Assembly (NCBI GenBank): GCA_028279595.1
Contig: JANQNK010000006.1
Span: forward strand, 32,001 to 96,000
DNA length: 64,000 bases
DNA from: Thermoplasmatota archaeon
Lineage (GTDB): Archaea > Thermoplasmatota > JAKEGO01
Direction: 5' to 3'
A model generated the notes under the pieces. That model did not search any database. It worked only from the letters and a program-made list of their open reading frames with translations, and was not told where the DNA came from. Made by a program: the position numbers and the translations under genes. Positions 21,012 to 21,525 of the stretch are shown here, in pieces. The first letter of the stretch is position 1. Each line of letters begins with the position of its first letter.

Positions 21012-21452
21012 GTGGGTACAGGGGGTGATGGAACGACCGCTTTCAACTCCACCATTCGTCTTGAGAGGACCCGAGAGGGGGACATCGTCGACGTCACAGA
21101 GAAGGTAAGGGCCGAGATATCGAAGTCCGGGATAATGAACGGTATCTGCCTCGTCTTCGTAGCTGGCGCAACAGGTGCGATGTCCGTAATCGAGTACGAG
21201 CCCGGCCTTTTGGAGGATTTCCCCGAAGCGCTCGAGCGCCTCGTGCCCAAGGGCCACACGTACCAGCATCACCTCAGGTGGCACGACGGGAACGGCCATT
21301 CCCACGTCAGGGCCACCCTGCTGAAACCGGACATCTCTGTCCCGGTCATCGACGGAAAGGCCAAGCTGGGCCAATGGCAGCAGATCATATTCCTGGAACT
21401 CGACGTGAAGGAGCGGGAGAGGGAGCTCTACGTCCAGATCGTCGGCGAGTGA
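21012..21452 (+). CDS. YjbQ/UPF0047 family protein
   Basis: EYEPGL, HDGNGHSHVRATL, LGQWQQIIFLELD. Confidence 0.92.
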   Translation: MGTGGDGTTAFNSTIRLERTREGDIVDVTEKVRAEISKSGIMNGICLVFVAGATGAMSVIEYEPGLLEDFPEALERLVPKGHTYQHHLRWHDGNGHSHVRATLLKPDISVPVIDGKAKLGQWQQIIFLELDVKERERELYVQIVGE

Positions 21453-21465
21453 ACTCGGATTCATC

Positions 21466-21525
21466 GGACCTAGATGATGATATACACCGCTGATAGTGAT
21501 GACCCCTATGAGTGCTGATAGGTCC
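21466..21525 (+). ncRNA. Box C/D sRNA (2'-O-methylation guide), predicted to target C34 of pre-tRNA-Met
   Basis: GGACCTA terminal stem; C box ATGATGA 21474-80; D' CTGA 21490-93; C' GTGATGA 21496-502; guide CCCCTATGAGTG; D CTGA 21515-18; TAGGTCC closing stem. Confidence 0.9.

Follow-up and report, generated by a model that had tools for sequence, protein, structure and literature searches.

A compact archaeal box C/D sRNA predicted to guide 2'-O-methylation of C34 on intron-containing elongator pre-tRNA-Met in a Thermoplasmatota genome

Does the element at positions 21466-21525 of this DNA specify a working guide RNA and, if it does, which nucleotide of which RNA would be modified? The window, i.e. 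the whole stretch of 64,000 nucleotides that was analysed, corresponds to G000:C11:32001-96000, where G000 denotes this genome (2.29 Mb in 21 contigs, 58% G+C). A preliminary description, made from the letters of the sequence, had read the element as an unannotated box C/D sRNA directed at the wobble cytidine of an intron-containing pre-tRNA-Met.

The RNA is 60 nt long and has the form GGACCUA-g-AUGAUGA-UAUACACCG-CUGA-ua-GUGAUGA-CCCCUAUGAGUG-CUGA-UAGGUCC (Table 1). The four perfect boxes and 7-bp terminal stem named in the preliminary description were all found at the correct coordinates. Its derivation of the target was equally sound, the complement of the D guide being CACUCAUAGGGG and the D+5 position the C of CAU. 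Both strands of the 2.29-Mb genome were scanned with a strict four-box pattern ([AG]TGATGA, 8-14 nt, CTGA, 1-12 nt, NTGATGA, 8-14 nt, CTGA). The sole match was 21466-21525, and five first-order Markov simulations of the genome gave 0 matches. RF00095, a generic model of Pyrococcus C/D RNAs, likewise had its top genome-wide match here. In the predicted fold the terminal stem is closed, and the energy is -15.8 kcal/mol (z = -3.0 relative to shuffled sequences). Compared with the archaeal spacer length of about 12 nt, the D spacer is of full length (12 nt) whereas the D' spacer is short (9 nt); D' spacers of 9-10 nt recur among homologues from Methanomassiliicoccales. Symmetric, correctly spaced C/D and C'/D' halves are tied to efficient methylation in studies cited as refs 21 and 31 of PMC7229835, and the own result of that paper is that the two halves are functionally independent. 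By these features of the sequence, 21466-21525 is confirmed as a genuine archaeal box C/D guide sRNA.

Table 1. Features of the sRNA locus and of the gene upstream (positions of the window)
Feature	Positions	Strand	Basis or remark
UPF0047 (YjbQ-like) gene	21012-21452	+	Pfam PF01894, 117.8 bits
Terminal stem, 5' arm GGACCTA (GGACCUA)	21466-21472	+	7-bp perfect complement of 21519-21525; canonical C/D kink-turn stem
Unpaired G	21473	+	Sequence layout
Box C ATGATGA (AUGAUGA)	21474-21480	+	Perfect RUGAUGA; core columns invariant or nearly so in alignment A1
D' spacer TATACACCG (RNA UAUACACCG), 9 nt	21481-21489	+	Sequence layout; probably no working guide
Box D' CTGA (CUGA)	21490-21493	+	At consensus; nearly invariant in A1
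Loop TA, 2 nt	21494-21495	+	Short loop UA(G) between D' and C'
Box C' GTGATGA (GUGAUGA)	21496-21502	+	At consensus; conserved in A1; K-loop with D' across UA(G)
D guide CCCCTATGAGTG (RNA CCCCUAUGAGUG), 12 nt	21503-21514	+	Complementary to elongator pre-tRNA-Met (anticodon loop and intron G1-G3)
Box D CTGA (CUGA)	21515-21518	+	At consensus
Terminal stem, 3' arm TAGGTCC (UAGGUCC)	21519-21525	+	Perfect reverse complement of the 5' arm

The target of the D guide was looked for among the tRNAs of the genome. ARAGORN called two CAU tRNAs, one initiator and one elongator tRNA-Met. The initiator has A1-U72 and three G-C pairs at the base of the anticodon stem, and is without an intron. The single elongator tRNA-Met gene (G1-C72) is located at G000:C7:48510-48601 on the minus strand, a contig other than C11, which carries the sRNA; no tRNA was called by ARAGORN in the window itself. 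The gene is interrupted at 37/38 by a 17-nt intron, GGGAUUCCGCCUGAGGC, with GGG directly after A37. An intron-bearing tRNA-Met with an intron beginning GGG had been predicted to lie elsewhere in the genome, and this gene is its counterpart. The genome is 86% complete, and a second tRNA-Met copy or a tRNA-Ile2(CAU) could be missing from the assembly. ARAGORN called only 33 tRNAs in the whole genome, several of them with doubtful introns of 185-1206 nt; neither tRNA-Ile2(CAU) nor tRNA-Trp is in this set, and small introns were also called in tRNA-Tyr and tRNA-Ala(CGC).

Counted from box D, positions 2-11 of the guide make an uninterrupted run of 10 Watson-Crick pairs with A31-A37 and intron G1-G3, the target bases in register being A31-C32-U33-C34-A35-U36-A37-G-G-G. 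Positions 1 and 12 of the guide are mismatched to pre-tRNA-Met, and 10 of the 12 positions pair. Guide position 5 pairs with C34, and thus the D+5 rule picks the wobble cytidine in the actual tRNA-Met gene, in the register that had been proposed. The target sequence given beforehand was correct in its core and not at its edge: the gene has GACTCATAGGGA rather than CACTCATAGGGG, and the 10-bp core ACTCATAGGG is present. The preliminary description would have been abandoned had no tRNA-Met gene contained CACTCATAGG. That string is indeed absent, because its first C is a G in the gene, yet the same 10-bp core is there. The number of ten-mer matches expected by chance is about 0.02, and pre-tRNA-Met is the sole assembled stable RNA that matches the guide in the right register with at most two mismatches.

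The precursor folds as a canonical bulge-helix-bulge in which C32-A35 pair with intron UGAG in a 4-bp central helix and both splice sites lie in 3-nt bulges. The duplex between guide and precursor has an energy of -18.0 kcal/mol; spliced tRNA-Met and the initiator tRNA, which offer 7 contiguous pairs each, give -8.3 and -8.2 kcal/mol, respectively. Archaeal C/D RNPs use a maximum of 10 bp, 9-10 bp being effective, and an 8-bp substrate was left unmodified in vitro (PMC7229835). With 10 pairs on the precursor against 7 on the other two tRNAs, these limits leave the intron-containing precursor as the only plausible substrate. Since the intron contributes three of the ten pairs, the unspliced precursor would be the substrate and methylation should precede endonuclease splicing.

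To which family does the sRNA belong? At gathering thresholds no Rfam match was obtained in the whole window. Permissive searches gave sR41 (RF01126) as the best match, with 30.5 bits and an E value of 1.5e-5 (cut-off 54), together with snoPyro_CD at 25.9 bits, below its gathering cut-off, and sR-tMet (RF02163) at 25.3 bits (cut-off 50). The sR41 and sR-tMet consensus sequences have a common guide, GCCCUAUGAG(C/U)G, and each resembles one lineage, either compact and Thermococci-like or long and haloarchaeal-like. In this family the D guide has the form NCCCUAUGAGYG and adjoins box D; CCCCUAUGAGUG, followed by CUGA, fits that form. The comparison with Haloferax sR-tMet drawn in the preliminary description was apt, as the Rfam consensus of that RNA has the same guide, GCCCUAUGAGUG.

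An exact 15-mer scan for guide plus box D, with one genome per species in the comparison across lineages, detected the pattern in 55 of 201 Thermoplasmatota genomes (reversed control, 0). It was also present in haloarchaea, Thermococci, Methanomassiliicoccales, other Thermoplasmata, Marine Group III, Hydrothermarchaeales and Methanohalobium. Scattered bacterial matches were taken as chance, C boxes being absent in every case inspected. Alignment A1 was built from 43 homologues. The boxes are invariant or nearly so, the guide core CCCUAUGAG is invariant, and the D' spacer is free to vary. The terminal stem covaries: 77% of cells are paired, compared with 50% in shuffles, and the covariation score of 0.72 (0.22 when shuffled) was reached by 0 of 500 shuffles and collapses in slid registers. 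A covariance model, R1, scores this sRNA at 62.9 bits, the sequence itself being one of the 43 members of the training set. The view of the sRNA as a compact functional equivalent of sR-tMet is supported, with the refinement that it is not an invention of this lineage, the family being spread through Thermoplasmatota, Thermococci, haloarchaea and other groups. Judged by guide, target and architecture, the sRNA is a new, unannotated member of a known guide family; in sequence and size it is closer to the compact Pyrococcus form than to the long haloarchaeal one.

The relation between guide and intron was examined across relatives, for 25 of which the elongator tRNA-Met gene was recovered. All 13 relatives with the exact guide and a readable tRNA-Met have the same 10-bp pairing with C34 at D+5; their introns, 17 to roughly 88 nt long and otherwise unrelated, all begin with GGG. 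R1 adds variant guides, in which the D box or guide position 1 is altered, in four GGG-intron genomes (G120, G034, G006 and G095). The guide is thus present in 17 of 19 GGG-intron genomes. In the two others, G036 and G078, no tRNA-Met guide was found by the covariance model or the relaxed pattern; a single pattern match in G036 was rejected as a tRNA-Met guide, its guide sequence being unrelated. The guide was found in 0 of 6 genomes without a GGG intron, three of them intronless (G018, G063, G171) and three with non-GGG introns (G003, G005, G014). The genomes are related and not independent, so the counts are descriptive and carry no statistical test; they fit a functional link between guide and intron.

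These observations bear on whether the sRNA might instead act mainly on spliced or initiator tRNA-Met, which have the CUCAUA loop in common, with the match to the intron being incidental. Both tRNAs do provide 7 contiguous pairs to the guide, and in M. maripaludis and P. furiosus the initiator tRNA-Met is reported to carry Cm34 (PMC7668247). Such a role is nevertheless unlikely. Seven pairs amount to only -8.3 and -8.2 kcal/mol, in a system where even an 8-bp substrate was not modified in vitro. The CCC of the guide is invariant in 43 homologues and GGG stands in 13 of 13 introns, which is hard to explain unless these pairs matter. Furthermore, the guide is absent where tRNA-Met is intronless (0/3), or in 0/6 when non-GGG introns are counted as well.

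The sRNA gene is free-standing on contig C11, between the genes for UPF0047 and an HHH protein and outside any tRNA intron. The stop codon of UPF0047 lies 13 nt before the sRNA stem, and in the 40 nt upstream of the sRNA no TATA-like A/T-rich box was seen by eye. A relative of the same family (G001) keeps the order HerA, UPF0047, sRNA, HHH protein, and one of the same order (G002) keeps UPF0047 followed by the sRNA; the flanks diverge in both while the position of the sRNA after UPF0047 holds. As there is no TATA-like box and the stop codon is only 13 nt upstream, the 3' end of the UPF0047 mRNA is the likeliest source of the sRNA. The sRNA thus probably has no promoter of its own and would be co-transcribed with UPF0047 and processed from the 3' end of that transcript, which would be a common arrangement for archaeal C/D sRNAs (PMC7994747).

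The lack of a recognisable promoter of its own, together with scores below the Rfam gathering thresholds, would also suit a look-alike, arisen by chance or by decay, from which no stable RNA is made. A look-alike is very improbable. No other site in the 2.29 Mb fits the strict four-box pattern, nor does any in the simulated genomes, and the place of the element after UPF0047 has been kept in G001 and G002 in spite of diverging flanks. Its stem covaries in 43 homologues and its guide fits the predicted target in a working register. A genuine sRNA, probably made from the UPF0047 transcript, is the reading followed below.

The preliminary description had found no identifiable target for the D' spacer, and none was detected here in the assembled 16S, partial 23S or 29 tRNAs. 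The best match, 16S CGGTGAATG, has a central mismatch, and exact 9-mer complements of the spacer occur 13 times in the genome, where about 17 are expected by chance. The D' spacers of this sRNA, G001 and G002 share nothing. In many relatives the tRNA-Met sRNA is a dual guide (loci L052, L095, L113, L148, L202 and L208 among them). Their D' guide, AAGAGGGUCAG, is complementary at 11 of 11 positions to 23S CUGACCCUCUU, just before AAGGUAGCG. The 23S site CUGACCCUCUU-AAGGUAGCG is kept in this genome (G000:C11:about 201271-201281), and no carrier of a AAGAGGGUCAG-type guide, neither an sRNA nor another locus, was found in this assembly. From the sequences compared, this sRNA and its two nearest relatives seem to have lost the second, 23S-directed guide. 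The D' spacer is probably inert as a guide, and the role of the D' half is most likely structural only.

A relaxed scan added one further C/D candidate to the genome, at G000:C19:132007-132054 on the plus strand (locus L139). Its layout is GTGATGA-TGAACGCCTCG-CCGA-TCA-TTGACGA-CTGATGGGCAAG-CTGA, closed by a 7-bp G+C-rich terminal stem. The D' guide of this candidate forms 9 Watson-Crick pairs and one G-U pair with 16S TGAGGCGTTCT; its D guide gave no target in the assembled rRNA or tRNAs. A guide near-identical to that of L139, CUGAUGGGCGAG, is seen again in other lineages, in one case (G017) serving as D' guide in a tRNA-Met sRNA. At G000:C19:257243-257258 (+; loci L138 and L206), 16 nt are identical to D guide plus box D, CCCCTATGAGTGCTGA. 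The identity extends to 21 of 23 bases when a C'-like flank is included, and about 0.001 such matches are expected by chance. This copy lies in sense at about codons 21-26 of an ORF of at least 539 aa that has a signal-peptide-like start and no Pfam match. It provides a perfect second 12-mer complement and was considered as a paralogue or a target of the sRNA. It was rejected as an sRNA, being a sense copy inside an ORF and without C and C' boxes.

The proteins that such a guide would employ are encoded in the genome, all above the Pfam cut-offs: fibrillarin (G000:C9:34099-34677), Nop5 (G000:C15:15109-15531) and L7Ae (on C11). A tRNA splicing endonuclease, also above the cut-off, is encoded at G000:C18:259662-260420 (+) by one ORF of 409 aa that contains two endonuclease domains. 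The fibrillarin and Nop5 genes are on different contigs and hence not adjacent, at least in this assembly.

Taken as a whole, the element is very probably a compact box C/D sRNA that guides Cm34 formation on unspliced elongator pre-tRNA-Met, with a D' side of structural function. The sequence allows boxes C and D, together with the 7-bp stem, to form a kink-turn and C'/D' to form a K-loop. As in the archaeal C/D RNPs characterised so far, both motifs would recruit L7Ae first and afterwards a dimer of Nop5 with two fibrillarins. Positions 2-11 of the D guide would pair with A31-A37 and the intron GGG of pre-tRNA-Met and, in doing so, open the 4-bp central helix of the bulge-helix-bulge (C32-A35 with intron UGAG). 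This pairing would place C34 against the fifth guide base before box D, the site at which fibrillarin would attach the 2'-O-methyl group, giving Cm34.

Guide binding has to open the central helix of the bulge-helix-bulge, and chaperone roles have been proposed for C/D sRNAs (PMC7994747). The sRNA could on these grounds be mainly a folding or splicing chaperone of pre-tRNA-Met, or a shield of C34 from another enzyme, with methylation secondary or absent. The likelihood of this is slight. C34 is exactly at D+5 in every lineage checked, and conservation extends to the two features that set the catalytic register, box D and the 12-nt spacing. In addition, where PMC4033218 and PMC6601510 treat the Haloferax homologue, citing Joardar 2011, Cm34 is listed as a C/D RNP product. 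Methylation of C34 thus remains the preferred function of the sRNA.

The task proposed for the sRNA has precedents. Grosjean et al. 2008 described that Cm34 of the intron-containing tRNA-Met of Haloferax is guided by a free-standing, non-intronic C/D sRNA (PMC2584109). The paper gives the same as the prediction for Pyrococcus sR49 and reports 18 such candidates, with part of the intron taking part in the pairing (PMC2584109). Two reviews, in their passages on sR-tMet, credit the experimental demonstration to Joardar et al. 2011 (RNA Biol 8:782; PMC4033218, PMC6601510). Like Pyrococcus sR41 (RF01126; sR49 in PMC2584109), the present sRNA is a free-standing gene of about 50-60 nt with canonical boxes. 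The two also agree in a D guide of the form (G/A)CCCUAUGAG(C/U)G adjoining box D and in their predicted target, C34 of intron-containing elongator tRNA-Met. It differs from sR41 in an unrelated and shorter D' spacer (9 nt as against about 11) and in guide position 2, which is U and not C, fitting A31 of this tRNA. Its host is a Thermoplasmatota archaeon of 58% G+C and not one of the hyperthermophilic Thermococci.

With Haloferax volcanii sR-tMet (RF02163) it has in common the D guide core, the C34 target on pre-tRNA-Met and the presence of intron bases in the duplex. The haloarchaeal forms measure 61-67 nt and have AUGACGA as box C, CCGA as box D and a long, structured D'-C' insert, whereas this sRNA, which is 60 nt long and combines four consensus boxes with a loop of 2-3 nt, does not belong to that subtype. 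The dual-guide tRNA-Met sRNAs of other Thermoplasmatota and related lineages resemble it in boxes, D guide and stem register in A1, and differ in that many of them have the D' guide AAGAGGGUCAG, which this sRNA does not carry. A functional likeness extends to human SNORD97 and SCARNA97, C/D RNPs that direct Cm34 of elongator tRNA-Met(CAU) (PMC6601510). These are a eukaryotic, intron-encoded snoRNA and scaRNA, and the likeness drawn here is one of function.

A wider and more tentative proposal is that the tRNA-Met intron and the guide have become co-dependent in Thermoplasmatota, the leading GGG being kept by the need of the guide and the two being lost jointly. In this order, the proposal continues, the sRNA may have been cut from a dual (tRNA-Met and 23S) to a single guide that would derive from the 3' end of the UPF0047 mRNA, and the genome may retain only about two C/D sRNAs, this one included. 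As a whole this is possible, with the balance of probability somewhat against it. The task, the RNA family and the mechanism were already known, and the known mechanism is unchanged. What is mildly new is that this order seems to have lost the second guide, that the genome has so small a C/D repertoire, and that guide and GGG intron occur together across the phylum.

For the biology of the family, the sRNA closes a gap in the annotation of a sparsely sampled lineage of Thermoplasmatota, and curated Rfam models miss most of the tRNA-Met C34 guide family outside Pyrococcus and haloarchaea. Cm34 limits tRNA-Met to AUG and guards against reading of the isoleucine codon AUA (PMC7668247). Because this modification restricts decoding to AUG, its guide would belong to the core decoding machinery. 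The occurrence of the guide in 17/19 genomes with a GGG intron, as against 0/6 without, lends modest comparative support to the older idea that some archaeal tRNA introns are kept for modification enzymes.
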